The notes beneath the pieces were generated by a model. It was not told the DNA's origin. It saw only the letters and a list, made by a program, of their open reading frames with translations, and did not search any database. 64,000 nt of DNA, taken from the NCBI GenBank assembly GCA_051294375.1, contig CM119265.1, positions 11,471,818 through 11,535,817 on the forward strand, read 5' to 3'. Below, piece after piece: positions 22,001 to 61,026 of the stretch (the first letter of the stretch is position 1; each line of letters opens with the position of its first letter). Origin of the DNA: Paraspadella gotoi. Its lineage: Eukaryota > Animalia > Chaetognatha. Position numbers and translations under genes: made by a program.

Positions 22001-25000
22001 AATTCATCATTAAGTTGGGTCGTGTGATAAAATAACGTACATAAAATAATCTTAGTTACATCATTAAGTAAGGAGAATTTATAATAACCCTCGCGCTCAC
22101 TTAAACAGAGGTACGTCAATGCCCTTCAAATCTTCCCGCATCCACGAAGGGTACGAGTAATCGTCGTCGTCATCGTCGCAATAAGGCAAACTGTTCGAAG
22201 GCTCCGACTCTGCGGAAAATATAGACGAGACGTCGAGGCCCTTGTCGGCTGGAGACAAGAAGGGCGTCGGGTAGGCGGCCCAATGACAGGGATACGTCTG
22301 CTAGAAAGAACGGTCGAGTAAGTCTTCAAAAATGAGAGAATATCATGCAAAAAGACGAGGGCCTCACCTTTAACGCCCGGTCGCACTCCGTCTCCAAAGG
22401 CCAGTCAGAATCATCGAGGAGAGGAGCAACGGATCGAATCCGCTCCACGTATAACGCCGGGTGCTGCGTGTTGGCGAAGTCTCCGTCGCGGAAGTGACTC
22501 AGATCCACGAAAAAATTGGAGATGTTGGAGGAAGAGGAGGGGCTTAGGGAGGAAGCGGCCAGTGTCTGGTTGAGCACTCGAAGCAAAGGCACATGCAGCG
22601 AGTTGAGCGTTTCCCATGAATGCGCCATCGCAGTGCGGTCGGGAACGGCGTTGTCGTGCCTGCTCGAGAGAGGGCCCCGCTTTCTTAATGAAACGACCGT
22701 TTGAAAAATTCCGGCCCTTTCGCGTCTTCTTTACCTGAACGTGCACCAAACAAAGGTTCCTTTGCCGTCGCCCGAGTCGACGACGACGCAATCGTCGACA
22801 CGATTCGCCAAGTCCATCTTCAACTTGTTTTCCTCCCATGCGATTCGTCGTTCTATCTTCCCATCGATCGCAGCCTGTTCGCTAACGAGCCTCTCATTCT
22901 GTTGCTGCCACTGCTCGTGTCGTTTCTGATATTCCTTGAGATCTTCGAGTGTCTTTTGCAACGACGCGTGCTGACTCTCCAGAGCGCGCTCGAGTTTCTT
23001 GTGGCAGAGCACCGCCCGCCATTTCGCGATCGCCGACTCGGGTTCCGACTGGAGAGCGATGGCATTCTCGTAGCAGATGGAAGATTTGTTGTAGTCACCA
23101 AGGACAGCGTAGATGTTGCCCAAAGTGTAATGATGAGTGGGGTGGCTCTAAAAGAAGAAAGGATTAAGTTATACTAGATGATCGAGATGCTTTAGGCCAA
23201 GGACAGCGAACAACCTTGGCGACGTCGAGGGCGGCGTGAAGCAAGATGGCGGCTTCTGAAGAGTAGCGGGCGCGGTGGAGGACGTTGGCGAGACTAAGTA
23301 GCGCCACGTCCTTGTGGCGGCGAGGTGAAAAATGAAGGGCGCGTCTCAAGCATTCGATCGCCTCTTCCGAATTGCCTGGCGAGATTGGAAAACGACGGTT
23401 CAAGAATAGTTGAATGAGACTTGATTTGTGGGAGTTCTCTTTTCTTCCCCCACCCTTTATTCTTTATCTACTCTTTGTTACCACTCTCAGTCTCTCGTTC
23501 AAAGATTAAGATTTGATTTGGTCTTTTCATGCCAATAACATAAAAGAAAACACAAATTATTTTTGGAAGTAACATAATATTTATTTTTATTTTTAAAATA
23601 AGCACTGATCTTCAGAGACTTCTGTCTCCATCAAAGGTGCACAACAGAAGTCTCTGAAGATCAGTGCATATTTTAAAAATAAAAATAAATATTATGTTAC
23701 TTCCAGAAATAATTTGTTTTTTCTTTTATGTTATTGGCATGAAAAGACCAAATCAAACTATTAACTACTAAATCTGCCAAAATCATGACTCTGAAACAAA
23801 TAAATAAAGATTAAGATATAAAATTTTAATTGAACTTCAATGCCGACCTTTCACGCGCCAAAAAAAGGCGGCCATGTTGTAAAGCACCCAGGACGTTTGA
23901 TTCTTGTTCAATGCCTTGTACACTCTGTGACCGTAGTCTTCAAGAGACTGTCCCCTTCCGACGACCTGATAAAGAATCTGGGGTTCCGGCGAGCTGGGCA
24001 CTTGGTTGCGAAGGGCGATGCCTTCGAGATGTTCGAAGGAGTGAATGCTGAAGTCGAGGGGAAGATCGACGCAGGACGGATGCTGAAACAAATAAATTAC
24101 TGAACCAATTAAAGAAAAAAATCTTAAAAGCAATTGCATAAGAAAAATCTGGATTGACGACAAATTTTGATACTAAAAAAATGAATTTTGAAAAAAAAAA
24201 AATTTATAAACAGAAAGAAAAAGAAGAAAAGAATAAATAAAGAATAGAAAGGAAAGAAACAATAGAAAAAAAAAGAATAGAAAGAAAGGAAAGAAAGAAT
24301 AGAAAGGAAAAAAAAAAAAAAAGAAAAGAAAGAATAGAAAGGAAAGAAAGAAGTTAATAGAAAGGAAAGAAAAGAATAGAAAGGGGAAAAAAGGAAAATT
24401 AATTTATAAACAGAAAGAAAAATTCTATTTTGCGATTGTCAATTTACAGTTAGTTTCTGAAAAAAAAAAAAAAACTTTTTCATTGTCAAAAGAATAAATA
24501 TAAAACAGTAAAATAACTTATTTCGAGTTTAATTTTTAGCAAGTGCTAGACTGGAGTAACATTATTGAAGGTACTTTTGTTTTACTTTAAGCACGCATAA
24601 ATGCGACCTCTCTAAACACTGTCAGCATTCCCAGACAAAAGACAAAGTGAAACTTGAATCAGACTGACGAAGTGAAGTAAAGACTAAAGTGAAATAAAAA
24701 CCCGATGTTACTATAGCAAAATGATAACATGCACGAATGCGATGCCTAATTTTACGAGTTCAATCCCAATTCAATTTTTTTTTTAAATAAAAACACAGAG
24801 AGAGAGAGAGAAAAAAAAAGAAAGAAATAAAATGGCAGCAGCAGAAGCAGCAGGAGAAAAGAGAGAAAAAGAGAGAGCCCCTGCAGAGCCAGCTGCAGAC
24901 TCAAAAGGCAGCAGCAAAAGCAGCAGGAGAAAATAAAGAAAAAGAATAAGCCCCTGCAGAGCCAGCTGCAGACTCGTTTTTTTTCTCTATGATTATAAAT

Positions 25001-28000: not shown

Positions 28001-30167
28001 AAAAAATTGTTTTAAAAATGAATGAATTTCATCAATTCAAGTGTTCTAACATGCTTTAATATAAAATTTTTACACTATTAACTGTTAAGAGAACTTAGCA
28101 GGCTGATTTTTCTAAGCTTGTCATATTAGATTAAAAAGAATATCTCATGATTATGGGGCGTGGCCTTAAGAATGAGGTCATTTAAGTCAACTGTTAAAAA
28201 ATATAGACAAATTAATGGTACAAAATTCAGAAAGCTGAGCTCCTGGCGATTCCGAAAATTGTATTCACTTTAAAACATTTTGGATGCATCTTACCCCATT
28301 TTATATCGGTTTTTTAATTTTATAAATATAAAATAAAAAGAAAACCTATCTGAATTAGTTGCAGCGGTCAAACGAAAAGGCCAATCCATCTGATAATTTT
28401 TCATGGAATTTTTTATTACTGAATTAGAAAAATGTAATAGCAGAGACCATTTTTTAAATTTCAACGTGTATCCCTGAAATAATGAAACGTTTTTTTATAC
28501 TTTAACCTGAATTCTTTCTAACTGAACGCGTTATCAAATGTCTCTCTATTACATTTTTACCCAAATGTTTTAAGATTGCTAAATCAAATTTTAATTTCAA
28601 TATTATTGCAGATCGTCTATGGCTGCAACCTCTTCAAATTCAGTGTAGATTCATTGTAGCTCGAAAATTTCTTTACCATCTATTTTAACTGAAGCATTTG
28701 TTTCATTGACTGGAAAACCAACAGAGTAACGAGATAATTGTATAATTCTCCCCCATTTCTAAACTAAACCCATACCTGTTTTTTAACTTCTTACTGAGAA
28801 TTTTTTTTAACAAAACAGATGAAAAAACAAATTCTTTTAAAAAATGTACTTACCCATTTAAACTTAACAATTTCTTATTTACCGATTTAAAAAAAAATTA
28901 TTTTAAAACACAATGTTGACATAAAATAAAAACTTTTTTTGTGTGATTACTGGTGGATTACGACTTGTATTTCTCGATGTATTAGCTCTAATACATCAAT
29001 GATTACGTATTTGTTTATGCTGAGATGACCTTTCCTCTTAACCGGAAGTGAGGTTTTACGTCAAATTATGTTAAAATTTTGACGAAATTAATTTTAAATG
29101 CAACAATAACAAAATGTTTAGTGCTTTTTAGGAATAAGATGGCATGTATTGGGATGATATTGAACTGGAAGAAGAGTGTTACAAAATTGTGTTCACAAAA
29201 TCTAATGAATTCTCCATAATAGACAACGCGATTATTCAATATTCATTCTATCTATGTCTTAACAACTATTAATTTCCAAGCTATTTTCGGTGAGTTAATG
29301 ATATTGGTGTGGTTTTTGTTAAATTAAATGGGATCATCATGGCCTTTCAAAGCCGTTATTAAGTTTGTCACATTCATTTGTCGTGGTTTATGCACATTTT
29401 TGAATTAAGTGAAATTATTTTTCTGACAGACAACGAATTTGTTTTTACTTTTCAAAATTTAAAATTGTACGTATTTGGTAATGTTCCTTTAAAACATTTG
29501 AACTTTTTTGACCCCGAACCCGACAAGACACAATGAAAATTTACTGTGAGCGGCCAGAAAACAATGTGTAAAAAACCACAACAAAACAAAGTATTATGTA
29601 GAATGAGACAATTATACCAATCAGGTAACTACTATGTTTAAGTGTTGTTTGGATATTTATTTTGACACTTCGGCAGAATTGTTTGGTCTGAAAAGTGACT
29701 TGACTGACATTTTTGCATTGGGGATTTGTATGTTGAAATATCTCCGAAATGAAGATATTCAATGATGTCATCAAAGAGAATGTTATTCCATCACCATGCT
29801 TACGATTCGTTTGCAGGCTTCTTTTTGTTAACTTGGTGGTTAAATTTTTGATATTTACATCATAAACAACTTTTGCCAATGTATGGATTGGAAGTTTAAA
29901 AAAGGTTTTCATTGCTCGCAAGTGCAGTTTTTCTATTTTCTCCCATTGGCTTTTGCTCGAGTTTATCCAAGTTGGACTAGAGTATTCAAAGATTGAAATG
30001 ACCAGACTGTTGTAGAGCTGAAGAACAGTTTTATAATTGTCATTAACTTTCTTTGCTATTTTATTGATTGCTAAGATTTTGCCCTTTGCTTTGTCTAATA
30101 AAGAATCAATGAATCTCGTCCATAAAAGTTTTTCATCTAAGACAATACCAAGCAATTTGAATTCTTT

Positions 30168-30204
<37 letters not shown>

Positions 30205-33200
30205 AAGAGAGGAGAGAGAGAAAGGTTTTCCAACAAAAAATTGAGAAAAGGACAGTGAGAAAAACCGCCTCATGGCTTTCACGTTGTGGCGCAAATCAAC
30301 GTTCCTACAAAAACTTAATTATTGTTGGATATAAGACATAAGATAAGGCATAAGATTTGGTGAGCCTCATAACACTTTTTTTTAATTTCATGTTTGCACA
30401 CTAGAGGAAGACTGAAGTCTTCAAAGTACTGTGCTATTTCGTTGTTGTCCATTAAAAACTTTCGTTTTCTCCAAAATTACAACAAAAGAGAGAAATAACA
30501 CAATGTTTTCAGCTCAACTAAATATATTGGGAGAAAATGTAGAAACTTTTTTATTCGCTGCAGTGTATAACAGCGTCGGATGGGAGGGCACTCAATTATT
30601 TAATTATTAATTAATTTATAATGATTTTTCTTTTTTTTAAAACGAAATTTCCAGTTTTTTACTGAAGATGAAATTGGATGACCATTAAGAAAAAGTTGTT
30701 TTACATAAAATATCAAATTAATCTTATGAAATTAAAATATAATAAACGTCCAGTACTTTTCTACAGAATGAGGAAAAAAATTCAAAAAATATTTATCTTA
30801 ATGAGAAATGGTACGCATTTTTTTGGTGTCACTCACGAATGGACACGTGGTACTATGTCTGAAATCAAACTTTAAATTATTTTTGGTATGACGTATATTT
30901 TCACTTTTTTTCTATTATTTATTATTTTATTTTTTGGAGGAGATCAGTGTTGACTTTTGGTAATAGAGGGAGCTTCTATAAAGCTCGAAAGGCTCGAAAG
31001 GCTACAAAGTACAAAATAAAAGATATAATAACCTAACCTTGATTTATATGCATAAATATATTGTTATCAATAGTTTTATATCAGTGTATTAAATTTTTTT
31101 TAAATTTTGCGTAAAATTAACTAAGAGAAATAGATTGGTTACTTTTTGTTGCATTTATAATCTATTTTATAATAATTAGAACAATAAAAACACTTATAGG
31201 CTGAAAACCTTACTTCCGGTTAAGGCCACGCCCCATTATAACAAGATATTTTTTTAAAATTAACAAAACAAAACTAGGAGAATAAGCTACTAGTGTTTTT
31301 TAGCTAATAATGGTGAAAAATCTTTATGTTACAGCATATTAAAACTCTTTCTTTAAAAATTATTATCATTTTTTGCCAAATTTTTTTGCATCAGTACTAG
31401 TTCACTTTGACGCTCTATTGGGTTTATTAGCAAAAACATTTTTTGGTCAAACAGGCTTTTAAAGTGAATTTAAGACAAGAAATAATGGGAAACCGGACCG
31501 AGTGAGAACTTAGTATGGGGTTTTTTTAGACTGGGGAACTCTAATAAATAATTGAATTTGCTATTCTGTTATACTAAAAAAATTTTTAAAAGGATTTAAA
31601 ATTCATTAATTATTATATGTCCGTAGGCAGCAAAAAAATAATGTTCAATCACTCAATCTTTTCATCACTCCACCCTACTGTATATGTAAAATTTCATAAA
31701 ATTCGATCGAGTACTTTGGTGGGAACAGATTCTGGTCACAAAAAAGGGGTACCACATTTTATAATATGAAGCCTTCTGTATACTGTACAAATGTTAAACA
31801 AACTCTCGTCGTAATCTGTCGATCTTATTAACCTTTTGTAAGTGTTTGCTTGAGGGGTATTGAAGGCGTGAAGAAATAGAGGGAAAATAATGGTATATTT
31901 CACGAAGAGTAGAAACGAGAGAATGTATCGCTAGATAAAATATACTGAGGGGCAGGAGGAGGAAAGAAGAAGAAGAGGAAGAGGAGAATTGGACGGCAGG
32001 CCAAATCCTCCTCTGCGTCCCCCTTCTTGACCAAGATGTAATGTCCAGGCCCCCAATGGCGTGGCATTACATCGTCATGCTTCCCTCTGGACTAAAAAAC
32101 AAAGACACAGAACTAAAAAAGTGAGAGAAGTCACAAACTAAAACTATTGGATTTCTATCAAAGCTACTATTTAAATGATTAAAAGTTTTTTTTTAATTTA
32201 TGTCATAGTCATTGACAAATTATGCCACTGCACCATGACTGATATTGATTCTTAAAAAAAGGGCAATGGTAAAGTCTGAGCCAAAAATGCAGCAAACTTC
32301 TGGCGCAACCATGGTCGTAAGTCTATTTCCATCAGTTTAGGGTAAGTATTTTTGCGTTTTCCAAAAGCTGGTTGCCTTCTTTGGTCTTGAGGCACACGTC
32401 GATGAGGGGGGATATAGATTTTTTCAGCGCAGGTTTGAGGGATCATGTATTCTTTCCAGGGTCCAGTTCTTTCATTTCTTGATTTTGTTTCCCATTTCTT
32501 GACCGGAGACTGATAAGAGCAGGCTTGATTTTTGGGTTGATTTTTGTTTAAGTTGATTCTTGCAAATGAAGTTTCTCCTTGGATTTTTCCAGCTGAAGTA
32601 TCTCCTGCTTGAGTTTTTACATCTTAAGCTTTGTCTTTGACAGTTTGTAAGTTGGTCTGCACTTGAGAATCAGTCTTGGCAACATTGGTTTGAGTTGAAA
32701 CTGAATCAGAAATGATGGTGGTTTGGGTAGTTTTTGAACAGGAGGTTGAGTAGGGTTGTTAAAGAGTTTATAATGATTTTTATCTGAATTGAGCCCTGAC
32801 CTTTATTTTTTAATAGCTCAAATATCTGAATTTAAAGTTTAATTGAATGACTCCAATAGTTCTGTTTTAAAGTCTCTAATTGGTTGAATTTTATACCTTG
32901 AATTTGAATATCTGGTCTCTCATTGGTTAATAATAACTAGTAGATGTTTTGATCTAATTCTTAAAATGTTAACTCTTCTCTCATTGGTTGTTATAATGTT
33001 GTCCTTGTATATAAAAGAAGAGTAAATTCTTAGTTTTTGGGAGATTCCTCTGAGACCATCAGGTATTAAATGATATTTGTGAAATTATTTGAATATGGTA
33101 ATTAATTTTAAGCTTTTATGTAGCTTTGAGCTGTTGCTGCGTCTTGGCTCTGTTGCTGCATCTTGATTCTACTGCTACTGTTGCTGCGTATCGGCTCTAT

Positions 33201-35144
33201 TGCTGCTGCTGCATTTTGGTTCTCTGTCATTCTGATGCACGTTTCTCAATGATTATTGGATATTGAATACTTAATAAAGTTATTATTCTATTTTTATCTT
33301 TTGATATATGGATTGAGTTAATATTAAGTCGAGATTAAGCACTGCTCAAACAATGTTCTCATCTGAAACTGAGAAACCCCCTAAGGAATCTTCTTCAAGG
33401 GTATTTTAGTCTGAGTTGATTTATTGCAACTAGCCTTGGGTTTTGAGGTCTGGGTTGAAGCATTGACTTGAGTTGAATAGGTTTGAGTTGAGGTGGAGAC
33501 AGTTTGGGTTTTTAAAGGAAGAGGGGACATATGTGTATTCTGCACCAAAGTAAGTAGATCCATTATATTCTTGTCCAGAATTCGTGGGTTTGCATTATTA
33601 GTATGCAATCTTTTAGAAAAAATCATCAGGTTTTCCAAGATGTCAATATATTCTCCTTTGAGGTCATCAGAACTGATTTGATCTTTAAAGTTTATTGCGG
33701 CCATTTTTTTGGATTATGTTCAAGATTTAGGGTAGAAAAGGTATTGGTTTTTCTGAACAGTTATTTTAATTTATCTTTTTTTTTTGTCTTTCAAGGGAGC
33801 TAACGTTTTCTTTTTCCTTTTTCTTAAGAGGTTAAAGTCCAATCTTAGCTTTCGCCATTTTTAGTTGGAGAGAGAGTTGAAGCGATCTTGTTTTTAGTTC
33901 CAGGTTCAAAGTTTGATGTTTAGATTTTGAAAATTCCAAGTTTTGATTGACGAAGAGTGAGAGAAAGGAGAAGTTATCATGTAATTAACATAAAGTAGGG
34001 GTTTTTTTATACAATTTCTTTGTAGTGATTTTAATAGTTATTTTGTAAAATATATCTTTTTTTTTGATGGGAGTTTGTAAATTTGGTTTATTTTTAAGTT
34101 TGTTTTTGGTTGTTAGTGAAGAAAAATATGTTTTTTTTTATAGAATTTCGCGGTTTTTTTTTTTTTTTTGCTGAGGTTTGCACAGAAAACTAATCCACGG
34201 GAGTAGGGTGTCGAGCCGCGAAGAGGGCGTCACTTGAGGGGTATTGAAGGCGTGAAGAAATAGAGGGAAAATAATGGTATATTTCGCGAAGAGTAGAAAC
34301 GAGAGAATGTATCACTAGACAAAATATACTGAGGGCAGGAGGAGAAAGAAGAAGAAGAGGAAGAGGAGAATTGGACGTCAGGCCAAATCCTCCTCTGGTT
34401 TGAAAATATAAACAATTGATATTTGTTTACAAACAATACAGTTAATTAGCCATCGTCGGGGTTTATGTGATTTATTATTTATCTCTGGTGGTTTATATTG
34501 TTTGTATTGAGTGGCTAAGCCGAGCTTACCTGAGAGGTCATTGTTATAACTATTGCTTACCGATGCTTGCCTTTTGCTTACCTCCAGTTCTTGATCTCTA
34601 AAGACTCATTAAATCCTGAATTAAAAAATTATCAAATTAAGCGCAATTTATCACCGGCGGCGACGCAGTCCTCGTCGGTGTTGTAGAACCTCGCCTCCAA
34701 TCCCGTGTCGTTGTTTTCGCCGGCCTCGATCTCAAATTTTCGGCGCAACAATTCCTGACATTCGACGTCGATTTTTAAAAAAAGATTTTGAAACGTCAAC
34801 GAATCTCAAGGCGTCTCCCTGACATCACCTACCTGCTTCAAAGTATCGAGAGAGTAGGCGCGTTCCTCTTGACGCAACATCGCCACCATGTCGTACGGAC
34901 GACGAAGATCGAAAGCGGAATCGTGCTAAAAAGAAATTTAAAATAGAACCTAATTCTGAACAAACATTTTTGGCAATTACTATTACAATTGCTGAAGCAT
35001 TGTACTTTCATATTATCAGTCTGGCACCTGCGGATGGACTCTCCCTTCCTCCGTGACGAACCAATGCGTCGTCGTCTCGCAAGACGATAGGATGGAGACG
35101 AAGACGACGATGAAAACGACAATCATCATAGACGTCTTCAGCAT
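13013..35144 (-). CDS. TTC17: Tetratricopeptide repeat protein 17 (signal peptide, TPR modules); 18 exons found, 3' end not found
   Basis: Phase-consistent GT-AG exons: 35144-35028, 34925-34833, 34754-34655, 25464-25349, 24082-23848, 23375-23215, 23147-22735, 22683-22368, 22300-22101, 21987-21690, 21612-21521, 21451-21376, 16941-16846, 14554-14256, 14172-13940, 13845-13531, 13459-13263, 13192-13013. Motifs TTHWFVTEEG, DTGLEARF..DEDC, SWVLYNMAAFFWRVKG, KDVALLSLANVLHRA, LGNIYAVLGDYN, QHASLQKTLEDLKEYQK and DVPLVALASLL match TTC17 as I recall it. Confidence 0.93.
17085..17420. repeat. Minisatellite: about 8 copies of 23-bp GATGCGATGATAACCAAATGATT preceded by GATGTAATAGTAATT units
   Basis: Head-to-tail units at 17211, 17234 and onward, with no spacers. 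Confidence 0.9.
18139..18843 (-). mobile_element. HINE family 1 copy
   Basis: AACAAGTTTGAGCAAACAATGTCGGATCTGC at one end; GATCTGCTTATAAGCAGATCC hairpin plus AAAA at the other. Confidence 0.7.
18925..19003 (-). ncRNA. Twister ribozyme, type P5 (3' LTR copy, family A)
   Basis: AUGUAG AAA GUGG GA UGG ACCGGG U^AA CCC GCC [UGUAGGC AUGG GCCUAC UA] CCAGA UCCAAAGC UCU UGA CUACAU. Confidence 0.7.
19275..19307 (-). promoter_or_regulatory. Extended primer-binding site complementary to the 3' 33 nt of tRNA-Trp including CCA
   Basis: The plus strand reads GGGTTGTGTGTTCGTATCACGTCGGGCTCACCA; animal tRNA-Trp ends AGGTTGCGTGTTC(A/G)AATCACGTCGGGGTCACCA. Confidence 0.85.
19377..19457 (-). ncRNA. Twister ribozyme, type P5 (5' LTR copy, family A)
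   Basis: UCAUGAAG AAA GUGG GA UGG ACCUGG U^AA CCC GCC U GUAGGC AUGG GCCUAC U G CCAGA UCCAAAGC UCUGG A CUACAUGA. T1 is UGG:CCA, T2 is GC:GC, P4 is CCAGA:UCUGG. Predicted cut between 19431 and 19430. Confidence 0.78.
19461..19522 (-). promoter_or_regulatory. tRNA-like Pol III internal promoter in the family A LTR (second copy at about 19008-19069)
   Basis: A box TGGCTCAGTGG, B box GGTTCGAGCCC, closing stem CCTCAG/CTGAGG, hairpin GCAC-CATCCCAAT-GTGC. Confidence 0.7.
20902..21047 (+). mobile_element. Truncated solo LTR (family C): hairpin, tRNA-like module and 5' half of a twister
   Basis: TGGTGGATT-AA-AATCCACCA hairpin. tRNA-like segment 20935-21006 (GCGGCCA/TGGCCGC stem, B box GGTTCTAGCCC). 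Then GAGG GA CGG GGCGCT TAA CCC GCC TGTA. ACTC occurs on both flanks. Confidence 0.6.
23512..23757. mobile_element. Foldback/MITE-like near-perfect inverted repeat in a TTC17 intron
   Basis: Arms of about 115 bp (TTTGATTTGGTCTTTTCATGCC...AGAGACTTCTGT) around a short loop. Confidence 0.8.
24133..25310 (-). mobile_element. HINE-like family 2 (other copies at about 26342-27126 and 36745-37537)
   Basis: Shared ATTGCATAAGAAAAATCTGG start, purine-rich microsatellites and terminal hairpin ATCGTCGCAAACGCTTAGCGATTGCGACGAT plus AAAAA. Subterminal ATCGTCGCAA repeat in the 36745 copy. Confidence 0.6.
27331..31679 (+). mobile_element. hAT-like element (TAGAGTGGAG...CTCCACCCTA termini) with nested insertions
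   Basis: Same termini and subterminal sequence as 40434-41062 and 49877-50765. Confidence 0.5.
29760..30167 (-). pseudogene. 5'-truncated non-LTR retrotransposon (LINE) RT C-terminal fragment
   Basis: FKLLGIVLDEKLLW...LQLYNSLVISIFEYSSPTW...IEKLHLRAMK is the typical post-RT region of LINE ORF2. Confidence 0.85.
31849..34397 (-). mobile_element. Non-autonomous LTR-type element with a decayed ORF
   Basis: Direct repeats of about 165 bp (31849-32015, 34233-34397), 5-bp TSD GTTTG, PPT AAGAAGGGGG before the 3' LTR and a degenerate PBS-like TGACGCCC...GGCTCGACACCC. Broken ORF at 33704-32252. Confidence 0.75.
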
Positions 35145-39449: not shown

Positions 39450-42400
39450 TTAAATAGACCTCGTCGTCGTCGGTAGCAAGTGGGCGTCTAAAATGACGCC
39501 CTTTAGTTGGGGAGGCGTCATGGGTGTTGTGACGAGCGCCTCCAGGACGTTAGAAATCGGGGAAGAAGCAATTAAAAGTAAGGTGGAAGAGTCCTTCAAC
39601 GAAATCGCCGGCAAAAGATTCACGTGGGACACCGTCGACGACGCAACGACGACGGGCGACAGAGTTGGAGCTGGTACCTCAGTTGGACAAGCGCCACTTG
39701 GACTAACGAGCCTCGGGTCCGGGGGCGAAATGACGAACGGCGCCGTGGCGACGACGCCGTTGGTCTTGAAATGAGTTTGACTGTGATCCTCCAAGGCTTT
39801 TCGATCGATGGTACGGAATTGGCAGGGCTTACCCGACGACGCCGACCTCCACGAACAGCCGAAGACGACGTGGCAGGCGAGACCCTCGGTTCGGATGCGG
39901 GCGACAAGCGACTGGAGGCGCGCCTCCGACGACGCTCGAGTCGATCGACAATCGAAGTCGATGGCAGCGCTGAGGATGTCGTTGGTAAGAGAGAAGTCGT
40001 ACGAGTCGCTCGACGCGTGTCGCCACATGTGGGACTTGAGATGGAAAGAGAAAACATTAACTAATTCGAATTTTATTTCTCCCAGTTTTTTGCTAACTTG
40101 TTTTTAAAAGCGACTAAAATACAAATTGAAAAAAGCGCTTACTCCTGACGTTAAATTTGACAAAAAAAATTTCGCAATTTTTAAATATTTCGAAAAATAA
40201 TTACAGAAGGCTTTATGGCAACAGCCGGTTGCCTGTGATATCCATTGGGATGAGGCATCTCACTGTTGGCTTTGGGGGCTTCCGACCCTCAGTGACGCCT
40301 CAGTCACTGGCGCGGTTACAACGCAGAGGGAAGTCGTGAGGACTGTGGATGGAACACAACGCTTGGGATGGTGTGTTCCCCCTCTGAGCCAATGGGATTG
40401 TCTAAACAATGATGGACTTGACGAGGTGAATAATAGGGTGGAGTGATGAAAAGATTGAGCGATGGAACAATATTTTTTTGCTGCCTTTGTATACGTAATA
40501 AAAAATAATTAAACCTTTTTTCAAAAAAAATTTGCATAACAATATCATTAATTGAATTTTCTTTATAGTAATATCCTTATAAAATCATAAAATTTCAAAA
40601 TCATATTTTCTTAATTTTAAAAACAGTTTTGGATTCGCGGGAAAAAACTGAAAAACTTTTGTAAAATATGTTACATGATATTTTTAGGTTAAAGCTGCGA
40701 AAAATGATTTAAAAGTTTCATCATATAATAGTTTCTACTACAAAGTGTAAAAAAGTAGAGAATTTGACCTTTTTTTTCCATTTTTGACGCTGAAGACATT
40801 AAAATTTTTAATAACATATTTTATATTTTTGATCTAACTTTTTATGAAGAATCAGAATCTTTAACAAAAATTTTTAAAAAAATTATTTTGAAAATTTATG
40901 ATTTTATAAGAATATTACTATAAATATATTGTAATTAATGATACTGTTCCCAAAACAATATAAGCAAAATATTTTTTGTACTCCTTAATCATACTATCTA
41001 ACGTTTAAATATACTTGTTTGATCACTCTAATAAAATTTATGTTCCCCAGTGCTCCACTCTAGTGAATAATGAATATACCGCCACATATATAAAATGTAC
41101 CCCTTTTTTGTGACCAGAATCTGTTCCCACTACCCGATCGAATTTTATGAAATTTTACATACAGAGTCCTCATGACAATATAAATGGAACTATCGAGGCG
41201 AATTTTGATATTTAACCCCTGACAAGAGATAAAGGGCCCTGGGGGGCCAAAAAGGCTAAAAATTTTGTGTTTAATATTTTTTGGTAGCATCAGATGCATT
41301 GACGTCTTAAACATCATTGACGTCAAAAAAACATTATAAATTAATTATTCATTACTTACTTAAAATTATTGAAATTCATTTATACATTAAATGAAGCATT
41401 AACAGGGAATCCTTATGATATAAAATTATTATTCAAGACAGTCAACAATATGCCCAGGACAACATTTTTTCTAATTGGACGAATTACACAAAGAAAACTT
41501 AAGATTTACAAATAAAAAAAATCATTATTCAAAAATTTATTAACATTACTATAATTCAGATACGCCATTGATTATATCATTAATAGGTATTTCTTAGGAT
41601 GTAAAATTTTTTTTTAAATGCAATCACGAATACACCTAAAATGGTCTTTTTGTTAGATAAAAAATTAAACAGAATAGTAAATGAATTAAACACGAAATGT
41701 AACTTATATATAGAAAATGTCCAGTATTTCTCTCACTAATGATATACTTATGAATTACATATATTAAATATTTAAGGTATAGTAAAGATTTTTTTGGTGT
41801 CACTCGCGAACGGACAAGGGGTAGTACAAGACTGTTCATAAACAACTATTCAAATTTTGATCTGCAACTTTCACTACACCTTACTTCTCAGGGTACGCTA
41901 CGAAAAATGCCTATGCCCTGCCGACTTCAGGTACGCTACAACAAACGCCTATACCCCTGTGGTACACTACAACAAACATCTATGCCCCACAACTCGAGCT
42001 CGCTCTCTCTCTCCCACTATGGTAACAGTCTTGTCTGACACCTCTCAGGCTTGAGGAACCTGAGTGATGTCTTGGCCCGGGGATCCCGTGGCGGTATATT
42101 CAGTTATTCACACCACCTCACGTCCACAATCGTTCAGCCAATAACATTGGCTCAGAGGGGGAACGCACCATCCCAGGCGTTGCATTCCATCCACAGTCCT
42201 AACAACTTCCCTCTGCGTTGGCAAAGCGAGACTGTCCTAGGGTAACCGCGTGTCGGAAGCCCTCAAAGCCAACAGTGAGATGCCCCATCGGCCATCAATC
42301 CCAATGGGCATCACAGGCAACCCGGCTGTTGCCATAGTACGAGGCATTCTGTAAATAGATAAAAACGAAACTAAAATTAAGCAAAAAGCAAAGGTTTTTA

Positions 42401-53291: not shown

Positions 53292-56201
53292 TCATGGATC
53301 GGACTTGGAGGGCAGCGCCGCCTCCGCCTCCATTCCCCTCTCGACGTAACTGGAGCCGGATGCGCCTCCGTTTGCGGCGCCGGAAAAATCGTCGGCCGAC
53401 TGCGAGGGCCTCATGGAATTGGATACTTGACGCTTGAGCGATCCCCAGGTGCTGCCGACTGAGGCGCCCAAGGATTGAAAGGAGGGCGAGTTTCGCATCT
53501 CGCCCAACTTTCCCCGCAGGCTGGTTCCCGCGGTGGAAAGGGCCTCGCCCGTCTTTTGGCCCGCCGTCTTTAAGGTGGTCGAGGTTTTGACGTAGGCTTC
53601 CGACTCTTGGATGGTCTTGAGGGTGGTGTTGAGGTCGGACTTAATTTCGTCCAAATGGGTGATGCCCAGGCTTCGCTTCAGGTCGTTGGCGCGACGGAGT
53701 TTTGCTTGCAAAACCTATTAAGGTAAGAAAAAATGAAAGGCAGGAGGCATGAGAAAAAAGATGCCGCAACTTCCGTCAGCCAAATCCTTTCACCTGCCGC
53801 AGGGTGCGAATTTCATCGTCGACCTTGGCTAGCTCCTGTTCTAACTCCGCCTTCTCCTCCGGCGTTGGCACTGGCTGCGCGCCGTTCGTCAAATCGTCAG
53901 CGGATCCTCCTGGGGCGCTGCCTCCAGAGAATCCGCTGTCGGCTGAAGGACTCGCGCCTTGTTTTAAAAAAAAAATAATTTATTGTGGCGGTATATTCAC
54001 ACCGCCTCACGTCCACCGTCTTTCAAGCCCAAAATCCATTGGCACAGAGGGGAACACACCATCCCAAGCATAGTGTTCCATCCACAGTCCTAACGACTTC
54101 CTCTGCGTTGGCAAAGCGAGACCGGTCCTAGGGTAAACCGCGCCAGTGGACTGGAGGCGTCACTGAGGGTCGGAAGCCCCAAAGCCAACAGTGAGATGCC
54201 CCATCCCAATGGGCATCACAGGCACCCGGCTGTTGCCATAAGTGGTGAGCCCTACTATCGAACACGCCAACCTTCTCGAGGTACGCTACGACAAACGCCT
54301 ATGCCCTTCCGACTTCGGGTACGCTACGACAAACGCCTATGCCCCTGGGGTACGCTACAACAAACGCCTATGGCCCACAACTTGTTGCTCTTCTCTCTCT
54401 CCCACTATGGTAACAGTTTGTCAGACACATCTCAGGCTTGAGGAACCTGAGTGATGTCTTGGCCCGGGGATCCTGTGGCGTATATTCACACCGCCTCACG
54501 TCCACAGTTTTCAGCCAAATCCATTGGCTCAGAGGGGGAACACACATCCCAAGCGTAGTGTTTCATCCACAGTCCTAACGACTTCCCTCTGCGTTGCAAA
54601 GCGAGACCGTCCAGGGTAACCGCGCCAGTGACTGGAGGCGTCACTGAGGGTCGGAAGCCCCCAAGCCAACAGTGAGATGCCCCTCCCCAATGGCATCACA
54701 GGCAACCCGGCTGTTGCCATATTATATTATATTCAAAACTTAGAAAATCCGTTTCACTTCTTTTTTTTACTTTATGACGCATTGTGTGTATTAAAATAAA
54801 AAATTTGAATTGAAGATACTAAACCAGACCATGTCCTAGCCTATCAATATTTTGGTTAAAAGTCATATGGGTGCCCCCCTTTAAAACGCCCTACTTAGCA
54901 AAGTTAAAAAGAATTTGATATGGATAATATAAATCCGGAAAATCCTTCTGTCAAAAATTAAAATGTTGCTGCTGAAGAAGACGAAAATAATAATAATAAA
55001 AGTGAGGAGAAGGTGAAGAATTGTGACGATGTAAGAGAAGTAGAAAAGAAGTGAGACGAGCTCTCTCCTGATCCACTTTTATCATCGCCCGGACCAACTT
55101 GACCTTACGGTCGCCTCGGCCCTATTACTGTGTCCGGTCAATCTAAGGTCATTGCCAAAGCTAGGGCAAAGTGACCGTGTGGAATAGACCGGCTCGAAGA
55201 AAGAGGAGAGAGGAAGGGTTTAGAGAGAGAGACCGGTGGTAAGTCGCCTCACTGCATCTGAAATCTTCATTTTTTTCAGCTGTAAACAATAAAGCCCTTT
55301 GTTACAGCCATACATATTAAATTCAAGGGTATTGCCTATTCATAAATGTCAAGAAATGGAATCTCAGTACTCTATAGTAGACTGCAGCAATGGTTTTTAA
55401 CACAGTAGCAAAAATACAAAGAAATATTTTTTTTTATTTGATGCTGCAGTATATTGCATTATGCTATTAACTTGATATTTTATACATAGAGTCCCAACTA
55501 TATTAGTTATTTTTTTCCAAGCTTACAGTGTGAACTTTTAAAAAAATATTTTTTACAGCATCTTAAAATTCTTTTAATAATCAAGGATAGAAATAACTTC
55601 TCAAACTGCTGCAGCTTAATGGCCATAGGGTAATAAGATAACATGTCCCATAAATATTTCTAAATTGAGTTCTTCATTTGCTCTCTTTAGAATTTTCCTT
55701 TTAGCATATAAAGGTGCTTCCAGCACATATATTTTTGGTTTTGGACATGCTACAATTGTTGCTTACAGCACCCTTATATATGGCTCTAATCGACTGGGCT
55801 TTTTCTTAATAAACTTCTTAATTATATAACATAATACTAGAAAATGTTAACATATTTTAGTAGTGGTTTTATGCTGAAATCCGGCGGTGTAACAAATTCA
55901 ACCAACGTTTCATACTTTTCGGTACCGTTGAGTATTGTTCGAGTATGAAAAAAATAAAACCTATATCAGAGAGAGAAAACATCATTGATTATTTTGATGT
56001 ATTATAAAATAAAATTAAATAATTTTTTGCCATTGAAATCTAATGGTAAATTTTATTCTAAGTTTTGATTCACTACCCTGTATTCTTAACATTAGCGACG
56101 AATCTTAAAATCAAACCTGCTCCGCCGTAGAGGCTTCCCGCGACGACGCCGAAAGTTCCCGCGCTAGAGTCATCGTCCGCCGGTAATGAAGCCGACATCA
56201 T
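53292..56201 (-). CDS. TPD52: Tumor protein D52 family protein (3 exons)
   Basis: Exons 56201-56117, 53957-53794 and 53714-53292 are in phase. ELEQELAKVDDEIRTLRQVLQAK...LKRSLGI, AGQKTGEALS and EMRNSPSFQS are D52-family motifs. The symbol denotes the family, not a specific paralogue. Confidence 0.92.
54107..54189 (+). ncRNA. Twister ribozyme, type P5 (5' LTR copy, family B)
   Basis: P5 GUUGGC/GCCAAC encloses GCGA GA CCG (G)UCCUAGGG U^AA(A) CCGC GCC P3 GAGG GUCGGAAGC CCC. A few single-base insertions, possibly sequencing errors. Confidence 0.75.
54593..54670 (+). ncRNA. Twister ribozyme, type P5 (3' LTR copy, family B)
   Basis: GCGA GA CCG UCCAGGG U^AA CCGC GCC AGUGAC-UGGAGGC-GUCACU G AGG GUCGGAAGC CCC. 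T1 is CCG:CGG. Predicted cut between 54617 and 54618. Confidence 0.8.
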
Positions 56202-57247: not shown

Positions 57248-60200
57248 TCACGAAAAATAACTCTGAAGGTTCTCTCCCAAATGCTCTTCCATAGCATTAA
57301 TGAATCGCTGCACAGCTTTTTCCACCTCCTCGTCTTCGTCCTCCATCAGCTCGGCCAAAAACGGCGCCACTTCCGGCAGAAGAGTCAGGAACTCTTGCTT
57401 AACCTCGATGGCAAACGTTTGAAGGGCGGTGACCGCTCCTAGCCTCGCGGCAACATTTTCGCTCTTGGTCTTGAGGCAGATAGAGTAAGCGATCTTCTTC
57501 CACATCCCCATGTCGTCTAAGGCAGCGGTAAAGGCGGCGAGACAAGGCGCTAAGCGGGATGACACGAAAGCAGCGTGGCCTGCAACATCGCATAGCAGCG
57601 TCTCGTTGTCTAAGTGATGGATCAACGGCTCGCGAAGAGCGTCGAAATTCTCCTTAGCCACTGCGCCTAGTTTGTCGTGACGGAAAACTACGGTGAGCGT
57701 ATCGACGACCAGTTCTAGGAGCCTAACGTTTTTGCGGCGATCGGAGAAGACTTGAATCGAAGCGGCGGCCTCCAGGTCCTTGGAGGGTGAATCGTCAACG
57801 CCGACCGGGATCGTCGACGTAGGCGCCATCCGATTCACTAACAAAATTTCAATGACGTTCTTTGCCACGCGGCCGAAAAAGAGCGCGAAGAGAGACTTGA
57901 GACTCGAAGTGATCTTCAACGACACCGAGTAAAATGTGAGGATTCTGTCTTGAAAGGGCGCCGCGTCTTCCGTGGCCCAGTCGAACAAGCGATAGTAAAA
58001 TGGTCGAAAGGTGGCCTCCGACATCCGGAGCACCATGGCCAGCGAGGCGTCGATGATGGAAGCCTCGATCTCACTTACCCGCGGCTCTTCAATCGTGTCG
58101 AGCGACTTGGCCCGAAAGTCTAGCGCCATGATAAAAAAGTCGCTTAAGTCAGGCAAAGAACCGAGAAAATCCTCTTTCGATAACCCATCGATGTGCTGGC
58201 GCAAGAGGTCCATGGAAGCGACTATTGCACTCATGTAGCCACGCTCCAGCAAAGTTCGGTAGCTCTTGGTGGCGGTCGGTACCATAGTGCGCGGCGGCGT
58301 TTTGGCGTGCAAGATTTCCCGAATCTTCGCCAGACGCAGAGTCAATTGCGCTTTATAAGATCCGTCACCGATCGAAGATTCCTCGGCGGAAACGAGGGAC
58401 ACGGCGACGACAATGTCTGCCAGAAACGGAGACAGAAATTGAGGAAGGGTTTCGAGGATCTTGCCGAGAGCCGTCAGGGCGGACACGAGCAACAGATCGT
58501 TGGAATATTTGGCCGGGGCAGACTTTGGGTTCGTCGTTTCGGCGATGATGCGCGGCACGACAAGATTGAGAAGAGGAACCGTCTTCGCCTTCAGGCTGCA
58601 GAACAATTCTGCAAGAGTGAGGAACACCGAAGACCGGACGACGGCATCCATTGAGTCGCCCGGCTGTAGTAGCAAAGTAACGCGCTTAACGATGGGCAAA
58701 AAGGCATTCGGATGAGCGAAGCCAAAAATGCGAGAAAGAAGTTTGATACACAGTAGCGCCGCCTGCGTCGTGTGAGGAGAAAAAGGAGGAAGCTTTTGAG
58801 CATCGTCCTCGTCTTCGGTCAGAACGAAACGCATCAACACTGGAAGAAGATTCAACCAGGCATCCTCGTTTCCCTCAGTGTCAGATCCACCGATATTTTC
58901 CGCTTTGATATAACGCGCCAATCGCGCGGCCAGAAGATCCAACCCTTTTCTCCGGACGTTATGCGACTGGTGATCGAGAAGTTTGAAGACGACGACGAGG
59001 AAGTCGGACTCTTGAAGCGATTCGTTAACGGCATCCATGGCCTCGGTCGACTTTGACATCATTCCTTTCCAAAAGCGCGCCGCAGGGGCGTCGCTCTCGT
59101 CCTCGGAGCGCTCGCCGGCTAGCAGCAAGAAATCCACGAGCGAAGCCACGAGAGAGTACAACTTTCCTGCCACGTCCCGCCTGCTCGTCTCATCGAGTCT
59201 TGAGTCGCCGAGAAACGCGGCGAGGAGTTGATTGATAAAGAGAGAGACGCTGAAGAGGAGCAGACGAATTTGACGAGCGGAAAGGAGATGAAGGTTGAGA
59301 AAGTTAAAAGGATGAGAGGACGATTGATCGGAAGATTCACGCGACGCCGAGCGGATGAAATGCGGTGGAAAACTAGTCAAGAAAGAAATCAAACGTTGCA
59401 GAGTCTCGATGACGACCACGAATCCGAAGTCGCGGCAAAGATGAATCCAAAATTTAAAAAACTCTTGAAGCTTCTGCACTTCGCTTTTGGGAATATCTAG
59501 ATATCTTTCGTGAACAGAATCAGGACGATCCCTGTGCGAGACCGGGGCTGAGGGCTGAACGTGAGATTCCAAAACGATGGCGATCAAACACCAGAGGGAA
59601 GATTCTGGTCCCATTCGATCTATGAGATGTTTAAAAACCAAAGTCCTACGGTGGGCAGGCATGTGAAAGAAAGCTTCGACAAAGACGCGCAGCGCATGCG
59701 CGACGTTTTCGTTGATGCGCTCAATATGGTTGGAGGAACCGATTTCCATCGGTTTTTCGTCGATGCTATTGCTGGCGAGCAGGACGGGAGTAATGGAGTC
59801 GAGAGTCTGCTCCAGGATTTGCATCGTGAAGTTGTTGTCTTGACGAAGCAGATGTTCTCCAACGAAGGTGAAGATGGTCACGATGTTTGGGACGACCAAG
59901 CGGGGCGCGACCTCGGCGGCGGCGTTGATGAGGTAAAACGCGTTGCGATTGCTCTGCGCCGTCGCCGTCGGTGATTGAACGCAACGAACGATAACGTCAA
60001 TATTGAGTCGTTTGTCGTTGACGATAGAATTTAAAGCCTCTGGATCTTTGGCGCGAAGTCTAGAGACGACGCTTCCGAGCGCCGCCAGGCAGTGATCCCT
60101 AGTGAAGAAGAGACAAGAATCGTCATTGCCCAGACAGTAAGAGATAATCTTTAACAAAGAGGGGACCAGATGTTCCGTTTCCTTTATTTTATTTAGATTC

Positions 60201-60949
60201 GACTGGAGGTAATCGAGGATTTTTTCAACTCTTCCTCGGAAGGAAGCGTTTAGATCTTTCTCTTCAACTTGAGTCTTTCTCCGCTTCGTCTCCTTAACCG
60301 AAGCGAAGCTTTCCTTCATGGGAATCGTCCGACTTAATTCTGCAGAAACGAGGGCCGCGTCGATGGTCAGACGTGATAAAACTTCTTTGGACTTTGAAGC
60401 GAAGTCGATTTTGTTTGTAGCATTTGGTGACGTCATCACCGAGTCTTTTCCGACCTCTTCGACGACCTCGACGCAAATGGCGTCGATGAGAAAAGAAAAG
60501 AAGGCGGTGCGCGTCGCCGTTGGCAGCGAAGAGAACCATCGATCGTCGACGACCGAGAGTTCGGCGTATTCCTCGACCGCATCGACGAACTCACGATATT
60601 CGAGACAATCGGAAGTTAATAGCGGCGCCACCGACGCCGTGGCAAAGCGACGAAGCAACAGCAACGCCGTCTCGTCTTCTTCCTGGTCGTGGCCAACTTC
60701 ACGCCTACGCTTGGTCAGCCGCGTCAATGTCGCCGTCAATGGCCGAAAGACGGCCTCTCCTTCGACCTCGGAAAGCAAGAGCGCCAATTTTCTCGTCATC
60801 GTGGGGTCGTAGCTCGGATCCCCTATGCAAGCGACCATGTCTTGCAGCAGGGTGGAATTCGTCTTTGTTAAAAAAGAGAAAATCTGAGGCAGTTGGTGAG
60901 GATCGATGACGATTGCGTCACTTCGTTCGACGATGGCTTTGACAAGATT
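57248..60949 (-). CDS. HEATR1: HEAT repeat-containing protein 1 / U3 snoRNA-associated protein 10, terminal exon
   Basis: The open frame extends to an acceptor at 60950. Motifs IFTFVGEHLLRQDNNF, HMPAHRR, BP28CT-type MSEATFRPFYYRLFDWA and LLPEVAPFLAELMEDEDEEVE...LGENLQSYF. Upstream exons lie outside the window. Confidence 0.96.
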   Translation of the reverse strand, partial: NLVKAIVERSDAIVIDPHQLPQIFSFLTKTNSTLLQDMVACIGDPSYDPTMTRKLALLLSEVEGEAVFRPLTATLTRLTKRRREVGHDQEEDETALLLLRRFATASVAPLLTSDCLEYREFVDAVEEYAELSVVDDRWFSSLPTATRTAFFSFLIDAICVEVVEEVGKDSVMTSPNATNKIDFASKSKEVLSRLTIDAALVSAELSRTIPMKESFASVKETKRRKTQVEEKDLNASFRGRVEKILDYLQSNLNKIKETEHLVPSLLKIISYCLGNDDSCLFFTRDHCLAALGSVVSRLRAKDPEALNSIVNDKRLNIDVIVRCVQSPTATAQSNRNAFYLINAAAEVAPRLVVPNIVTIFTFVGEHLLRQDNNFTMQILEQTLDSITPVLLASNSIDEKPMEIGSSNHIERINENVAHALRVFVEAFFHMPAHRRTLVFKHLIDRMGPESSLWCLIAIVLESHVQPSAPVSHRDRPDSVHERYLDIPKSEVQKLQEFFKFWIHLCRDFGFVVVIETLQRLISFLTSFPPHFIRSASRESSDQSSSHPFNFLNLHLLSARQIRLLLFSVSLFINQLLAAFLGDSRLDETSRRDVAGKLYSLVASLVDFLLLAGERSEDESDAPAARFWKGMMSKSTEAMDAVNESLQESDFLVVVFKLLDHQSHNVRRKGLDLLAARLARYIKAENIGGSDTEGNEDAWLNLLPVLMRFVLTEDEDDAQKLPPFSPHTTQAALLCIKLLSRIFGFAHPNAFLPIVKRVTLLLQPGDSMDAVVRSSVFLTLAELFCSLKAKTVPLLNLVVPRIIAETTNPKSAPAKYSNDLLLVSALTALGKILETLPQFLSPFLADIVVAVSLVSAEESSIGDGSYKAQLTLRLAKIREILHAKTPPRTMVPTATKSYRTLLERGYMSAIVASMDLLRQHIDGLSKEDFLGSLPDLSDFFIMALDFRAKSLDTIEEPRVSEIEASIIDASLAMVLRMSEATFRPFYYRLFDWATEDAAPFQDRILTFYSVSLKITSSLKSLFALFFGRVAKNVIEILLVNRMAPTSTIPVGVDDSPSKDLEAAASIQVFSDRRKNVRLLELVVDTLTVVFRHDKLGAVAKENFDALREPLIHHLDNETLLCDVAGHAAFVSSRLAPCLAAFTAALDDMGMWKKIAYSICLKTKSENVAARLGAVTALQTFAIEVKQEFLTLLPEVAPFLAELMEDEDEEVEKAVQRFINAMEEHLGENLQSYFS

Positions 60950-61026
60950 CTGTTAGGGAAGAGAAAAAGATAATCAATTTTTAGATTTTTTTTCTCTCTT
61001 TTTTTTATTTAATTTTTAAAGAGATA

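Follow-up and report, generated by a model that had tools for sequence, protein, structure and literature searches.

A chaetognath TRIM with a twister-type ribozyme motif in each LTR, a probable LTR retrozyme of animals

Retrozymes have been divided, in a 2026 preprint (10.64898/2026.07.22.740005), into plant elements that carry long terminal repeats (LTRs) and type III hammerhead ribozymes, and animal elements that are non-LTR and carry type I hammerheads. Helenus/TRIMp3 (Kojima 2024; PMC10886601) comprises miniature terminal-repeat retrotransposons (TRIMs) that have tRNA-like boxes in their LTRs, produce a 4-bp target-site duplication (TSD) in animals, and are mobilized by Gypsy elements. 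We analyzed a 64,000-nt stretch of the genome of Paraspadella gotoi (Chaetognatha; assembly GCA_051294375.1, contig CM119265.1, forward-strand positions 11,471,818 to 11,535,817), called the window below and numbered from its first letter. An element at 53984-54721 (+) combines a Helenus-like anatomy with a twister-type ribozyme motif in each LTR. On the sequence evidence, we lean toward reading it as a Helenus-like TRIM that works as an animal LTR retrozyme, which would form a 483-nt circular RNA and would likely depend on a CsRn1-type Gypsy element for its copying and insertion.

The element, which makes up family B together with its partial copies in the window, resembles Helenus in being short and non-coding, with two LTRs, tRNA-type box-like motifs in the LTR, a tRNA primer-binding site (PBS), a 4-bp TSD, and apparent Gypsy dependence; the length of 738 nt lies within the Helenus range of 311-1263 bp, and Helenus likewise has several families per genome (PMC10886601). 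It differs from Helenus in that a twister core follows the boxes, and in that the family B boxes are degenerate. The main text of PMC10886601 contains no use of "twister" or "self-cleav"; six short twister motifs gave no match in its Data S1, which was a motif search rather than a descriptor scan, and no twister was visible by eye in the animal Helenus consensus LTRs (Data S1 parts 5-9). Nearest among the Helenus families are Helenus-2_SyJa and Helenus-2_SyUm, both from gall wasps and the only ones that we found there to be Trp-primed. Directly after the tRNA boxes, the LTRs of both contain what appears, by eye only, to be a type III hammerhead, in which three helices and loops that complement each other accompany the CUGAUGA and GAAAC cores. 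The apparent wasp hammerhead occupies the same LTR position as the twister does here, although the ribozyme is another one, and it goes unreported in PMC10886601.

Plant LTR retrozymes are similar in having a ribozyme at the same place in both LTRs, a PBS, a 4-bp TSD, a Gypsy helper, and a monomer without the R repeat (PMC4918200). However, they use a type III hammerhead and a Met primer, whereas a twister and a Trp primer are found here in an animal host, and their monomers measure ~600-800 nt compared with the 483 nt predicted here (PMC4918200). Unlike plant LTR retrozymes, the present element contains tRNA-type boxes, and its circles are predicted only. Rfam gave no hammerhead match on the window (E<=1) or the element (E<=10). 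As retrozymes have been defined, by type III hammerhead and Met primer, the element is outside the group; judged from its sequence, its mode of action is probably that of an LTR retrozyme, with a twister as the ribozyme. Animal non-LTR retrozymes share with it a small, non-coding, ribozyme-delimited monomer, but they consist of type I hammerhead repeats in tandem, lack an LTR, PBS, and polypurine tract, and are linked to Penelope-like elements (PMC7229834; 10.64898/2026.07.22.740005). The RTE/Perere-3 elements provide a twister in an animal retroelement, with a short or variable P1 and tolerance of an extra A in L1 (PMC8501958). They are, in contrast, autonomous non-LTR elements with a single ribozyme in P1-type order, as opposed to two P5-type ribozymes per element here (PMC8501958).

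In the literature searched, with Roth et al. 2014, Repbase, and Dfam outside its scope, we came across neither an account of an LTR retrozyme from an animal nor one of an LTR that holds a twister; this negative spans the available portions of PMC7229834, PMC6765202, PMC5680766, PMC11722881, 10.1101/2022.07.19.500677, and 10.64898/2026.07.22.740005, the last of which places LTR retrozymes mainly in plants. Supplements on bioRxiv, which lie outside it, could list such twisters (e.g., 10.1101/2024.07.11.603121). Insect elements that carry type III hammerheads are cited as unpublished in a 2020 review (PMC7761336), which also speaks of twisters at the 5' ends of RTE elements, so that related cases may be known to others. 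An earlier note on this DNA, made without database searches, had named the combination of twister and animal LTR retrozyme as one for which it knew no description. This holds for the literature searched as regards the twister, but the animal LTR type with tRNA boxes for RNA polymerase III (Pol III) is already known as Helenus/TRIMp3 (PMC10886601).

That the element at 53984-54721 (+) is a non-coding TRIM is virtually certain. Its 5' LTR (53984-54240, +; 257 nt, with TGT...ATA termini) and 3' LTR (54474-54721, +; 248 nt) were delimited by LTR-LTR alignment, which fixed the LTR start independently of the TTAT that flanks the element on the left (53980-53983, +) and again on the right (54722-54725, +); this 4-bp TSD comes from a single insertion at an AT-rich site. 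LTR alignment, flanks, and the listing of open reading frames (ORFs) agree with the non-coding element of 738 bp, two LTRs of about 250 bp, and TTAT TSD in the earlier note, and the longest ATG-initiated ORF overlapping it has 81 aa. The two LTRs are identical at 238 of 260 aligned columns (91.5%) and are separated by 7 substitutions and 14 indel events. Of these indels, 13 are single-letter; 11 fall within homopolymer runs, and in 11 it is the 5' LTR that has the extra letters. Such an excess suggests sequencing error or slippage, and the identity may therefore overstate the age of the LTRs, which may be younger.

A partly degenerate tRNA-Trp-type PBS (54243-54255, +) was recognized by eye against the printed PBS of PMC2582038 and the tRNA-Trp end in PMC10886601 Fig S2. 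It begins with TGGTGAGCCC at 54243-54252, two letters 3' of the 5' LTR end. The Trp-type site claimed before is thus present, but only 11 of its first 13 letters match the honeybee tRNA-Trp end, compared with 17 of 18 in a sister family (family A, described below). The remainder of the 233-nt interior holds a 27-nt internal repeat in three copies (starting at 54280, 54318, and 54349; 54280-54375, +), which recurs in a second copy at 41892-41988, and a weak polypurine run, GGGGA (54466-54470, +), 3 nt 5' of the 3' LTR, with the same run at 42080 in that copy. In families B and A, complementarity to what we take to be the 3' half of tRNA-Trp seems to extend well beyond 18 nt (54243-54278 in the present element). 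The reverse orientation of the element was rejected, as the minus strand has no PBS after an LTR.

In both LTRs, and with the same polarity as the PBS, a twister core parses position by position (GA, T1' CCG, UAA, P2, GC, P3, P4, and UCGGAAGC, which forms L4 in both), as the earlier note had read it from the letters; we compared the layout with PMC8501958 Table 1 and PMC5408937. The first P5-permuted motif (54107-54189, +) has GA at 54120-54121, T1' at 54122-54124, T2 GC at 54142-54143, and L4 at 54170-54177, with a predicted cut at 54134/54135. The second (54593-54670, +) has GA at 54605-54606, T1' at 54607-54609, L4 at 54651-54658, and a predicted cut at 54617/54618. The descriptor positions reproduce the cut sites given in the earlier note, and cleavage after U54134 and U54617 would release its 483-nt monomer. 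The conserved nucleotides of L1 (UAA, GA) and L4 (U-NNN-AAGC), T2 GC, and every other catalytic and pseudoknot position are intact in both LTRs, the pseudoknots being T1 CGG:CCG (3 bp) and T2 GC:GC (2 bp). P2 forms 3 of 4 pairs with the C-A mismatch noted before; P3 has 6-7 bp (7 bp in the second motif) and P4 has 3 bp. The closing P5 reaches its full 6 bp, GUUGGC:GCCAAC, in the 5' LTR only, whereas in the 3' LTR it is one G shorter and scores 4 bp, and so the claim of this helix stands for one LTR. In the 5' LTR, L1 has a third A and reads UAAA; the 3' LTR has UAA at this place. P1 is vestigial in both (2-3 possible pairs over a very tight loop) and stays unformed in the constrained fold.

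The descriptor was written by hand from the published layout after the motif had been seen, with core letters that were afterwards compared with the papers, and it was relaxed (allowing a bulged P2) after family A had been seen. In its strict form it matched the window twice, at U54134 and U54617, and none of 3000 shuffles of the element. In its relaxed form it matched four times, in the four LTRs of the two complete elements in the window, with 0/20000 and 1/20000 matches in LTR shuffles (0/20000 for the 5' LTR of 53984-54721) and 2 matches in 100 block-shuffled windows (0.02 each). The twister-type feature is real as a sequence pattern, well beyond chance, and its twister descent is very likely. 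Published tests found mismatches and bulges in P1, P2, and P4 to be tolerated and pseudoknot flaws not to be, and about 94% of the natural twisters assayed were active; P1 has been reported to be dispensable (PMC5408937), and twisters with 2-7 A in L1 still cleave (PMC8501958). The P1, P2, and L1 flaws of family B are thus of tolerated kinds, and we consider it likely from the sequences that the twister is active in the family.

The sister family A is represented by a second complete two-LTR element on the minus strand (18857-19572), with LTRs of 263-265 nt that are 7 substitutions apart. It has a clear box A and box B, the Trp PBS already mentioned, and a twister core in both LTRs; cleavage predicted at the U of 19431 and of 18978 would give a 453-nt monomer. 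Its TSD is uncertain, being either ATAT or AATAT and displaced from the end of the LTR. Every helix is preserved between families A and B despite a change of letters, as in T1 (CCA:UGG in family A vs. CGG:CCG in family B) and P4 (CCAGA:UCUGG vs. GGG:CCC), and P3 and P5 also differ. The loop of the tRNA-like head of family A (CCAUCCCA) could pair with the P2'/GA/T1' strand of its own element, to which it is complementary, and so block the ribozyme. A fragment of family C (20905-21050, +) consists of a hairpin, a tRNA-like head with a 7-bp acceptor-type stem and a tRNA-like cloverleaf, and the 5' half of the twister layout, ending in P3, with a 3-nt P2 and a bulged partner strand as in family A. 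Local similarity between family A and the 3' LTR of the B element, and between families A and C, was reached by 0/1000 shuffles in each case, that between family A and two broken B LTRs by 2/1000 and 11/1000, and that between families B and C by 198/1000. Three related families (A, B, and C) are found within 64 kb.

Two further copies of family B are incomplete. One (41884-42336, +) retains most of the internal region and one LTR, and its ribozyme lacks the T2-P3-P4 segment; the other (40214-40428, -) is a 5'-truncated LTR whose ribozyme lacks the P2'/GA/T1'/P1 segment. The C-A mismatch of P2, next to the active site, is found in all three B copies that keep this segment. A 16-nt tip of the family B LTR stands alone at 41071-41086 (-), ~640 nt from the end of the truncated LTR at 40428, and their flanks share no common duplication. 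A third Trp-type primer site in the window lies at 1942-1951; on the minus strand, the stretch 1800-1960 consists of this site followed by ~150 nt of GC-rich sequence, and probably represents a piece of yet another Trp-primed LTR element. The cut-site motif also has matches at 35733 and 61368, which we dismissed because they lie in an unrelated AT-rich repeat.

Elements of the CsRn1 clade of Gypsy have TGT...AAA or TGT...ATA ends, a Trp PBS (TGGTGAG/CCCCG, with G or C at position 7), and a 4-bp TSD (PMC2582038). All three traits, that is, ends, Trp PBS, and TSD, are found in the element at 53984-54721, and a CsRn1-clade Gypsy element is, from these traits, its likely helper; CsRn1 elements themselves are autonomous and protein-coding, whereas the present element is neither (PMC2582038). 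The earlier suggestion of a Gypsy-dependent, non-autonomous animal LTR element with a twister-type motif in each LTR is therefore supported by anatomy and descriptor. An element of ~2.5 kb at 31849-34397 showed no PBS, no TG/CA ends, and no sign of being the helper; it is bordered by 167-nt direct repeats (96% identical) and has a decayed coding-like interior.

If the element works as an LTR retrozyme, its transcript would begin within the 5' LTR, the probable promoter being a tRNA-derived one for Pol III that lies ~100 nt upstream of the first cut. Both ribozymes would cut at U^A and leave a monomer with a 5'-OH, a 2',3'-cyclic phosphate, and no terminal repeat, which a host ligase, by analogy with plant retrozymes, may close to the 483-nt circle. 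This circle would restore a whole LTR directly before the PBS, so that tRNA-Trp-primed reverse transcription would need no first strand transfer, and a CsRn1-clade element would presumably provide reverse transcriptase and integrase. The argument made for plant retrozymes would also apply here, in that double cleavage removes the R repeat and thereby implies a circular template (PMC4918200). On balance, we consider the circular route somewhat more likely than not.

The promoter can be compared between the two families. In family B, degenerate tRNA-type Pol III boxes are present in the 5' LTR (54040-54083, +; box A-like 54040-54050, box B-like 54075-54083) and in the 3' LTR (+; box A-like 54525-54535, box B-like 54560-54568). 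Box A of this 5' LTR misses the pattern by one letter, and the remaining three family B LTRs pass. The region 54040-54083 lies inside a stable hairpin domain (z -3.1) and resembles the head of family A, which has all the Helenus boxes (TRGCY, YGG, and GGTTC). A T4 run is a possible Pol III stop, and one lies upstream of the second ribozyme of the present copy. Because box B lacks GGTTC and because of this run, the sequences give weak support to Pol III drive for family B itself, and make it plausible by descent.

Several observations weigh against the element being a working LTR retrozyme. The check with the Rfam twister model that the earlier note had proposed failed, with no match on the window at E<=1 or on families B, A, and C at E<=10. 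With the pseudoknots unscored, a nested fold compatible with the twister is 9-15 kcal/mol less favorable than the minimum-free-energy fold, and the cores, folded in isolation, did not surpass their shuffles (z -0.8 and -0.2). Two of the four family B LTRs lack core segments, a different one each. The covariation rests on two independent families, and the MAFFT alignment of A and B is out of register. TRGCY is present in three of the four family B LTRs, and YGG and GGTTC in none; ARAGORN reported no tRNA gene, and Rfam recognized no tRNA either in the window (E<=1) or in families B, A, and C (E<=10). The T4 run is at 54508-54511. No Gypsy ORF was found among the 27 window ORFs of >=120 aa, seven of which were Pfam-scanned. 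Scans of metagenome and viral contigs gave no locus for the shared head motif, and 23 metagenome loci and no viral locus for the ribozyme-junction motif; as 0/23 pass the strict twister descriptor, we regard these as chance matches. The 483-nt circle of family B is 59% paired (z -2.0), and 3 of 60 shuffles were equally stable. The 453-nt circle of family A is 66% paired (z -1.9; 1/60 shuffles equally stable). For animal non-LTR retrozyme RNAs, >70% paired has been quoted, and circle self-pairing, as modeled, is weak support for the circular route.

An alternative, which we regard as unlikely, is that the twister does cut, but that it only trims RNA ends or rides in a SINE-like (short interspersed element-like) cassette of tRNA head plus twister, with the element following the linear-RNA route of Helenus and circles being absent or a by-product. 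Kojima's proposal that Helenus arose by insertion of a SINE into an LTR and uses the standard route (PMC10886601) is in line with such a cassette, as are the twisters that trim the 5' end of RTE/Perere-3 elements (PMC8501958) and the start of P3 in family A, which is like that of the S. mansoni twisters in PMC8501958 Table 1. The S. mansoni twisters, however, are listed as the P1 form, whereas the permutation here is P5 (PMC8501958). The T4 run upstream of the 3' ribozyme in this copy and the modest self-pairing of the monomer also fit this alternative, but neither the other three B LTRs nor the family A monomer has such a run. Moreover, cleavage by both of the identical LTR ribozymes would leave no R repeat for strand transfer (PMC4918200).

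It is still less probable that the motif, although of twister descent, is non-working in family B and that the element is a decaying TRIM. The C-A mismatch in P2 next to the active site, the vestigial P1, and the 3-bp P4 could be read as decay, but such flaws are tolerated in assayed twisters, and the catalytic and pseudoknot positions are all intact in both LTRs of the complete copy. Likewise, the deletions in two of four B LTRs and the 14 indel events between the LTRs would suit a decaying element, whereas the indels are mostly single-letter or homopolymer changes against only 7 substitutions, as expected from sequencing error or slippage.

A twister likeness arisen by chance, for example, through decay of a stretch derived from 5S rRNA or tRNA, of the sort found in Ajax, Cassandra, and hybrid SINEs, is very improbable: the missing Rfam twister match, the post hoc descriptor that was relaxed after family A, and what we take to be a loose likeness of family A to the 3' end of 5S rRNA (with the Rfam 5S match absent at E<=10) are outweighed by the lack of any 5S or tRNA match in Rfam at E<=10, by matches in all four complete-element LTRs vs. 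0.02 per shuffled window, and by pseudoknot letters that change between the families and yet pair.

As for its surroundings, the element at 53984-54721 seems, given the gene structure that we infer, to be placed in antisense within an intron, likely ~25 nt from a splice acceptor; the gene is of the TPD52 family (Pfam E 1.4e-24). The truncated B copy at 40214-40428 (-) has the same sense as the ORF at 39450-40103 (-) and lacks the strand with the catalytic G, whereas the intact copy runs antisense to the gene that hosts it; this contrast, with one case each, could reflect selection against cutting host RNA. Neighboring the element, 57248-60952 (-) is a 1234-codon uninterrupted HEATR1/UTP10 frame whose 18 best database relatives are 28-38% identical; 14 of the 15 named HEATR1 relatives are animals, and the sole non-animal has the lowest score, which points to an animal host from a sparsely sampled lineage. 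A 114-nt inverted repeat (97%) at 23512-23757 resembles a miniature inverted-repeat transposable element, with only sub-threshold plant miRNA matches in Rfam. The ORF at 29541-30269 (-), with no Pfam match, looks like the C-terminal portion of a reverse transcriptase of the non-LTR kind.

An animal LTR element with twisters, if the reading as an LTR retrozyme is true, would break both halves of the rule that assigns hammerheads to LTR elements in plants and to non-LTR elements in animals. Twisters, whose biological roles are mostly unknown, would gain a defined job, and ribozyme classes would be exchangeable at one and the same position of the LTR. With a named helper clade, the proposal that reverse transcription runs on a circle becomes testable, and our results suggest that Rfam-based scans miss these ribozymes. 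More tentatively, and with the odds slightly against it, the sequences may point to an animal class of LTR retrozymes that is Trp-primed, CsRn1-mobilized, and Pol III-driven, with an interchangeable ribozyme and small circular RNAs. If such a class is real, it would include a twister in at least three families here and a type III hammerhead in gall wasps, and its members would act as natural generators of circles from tandem twisters and as a source, within animal genomes, of viroid-like RNAs.

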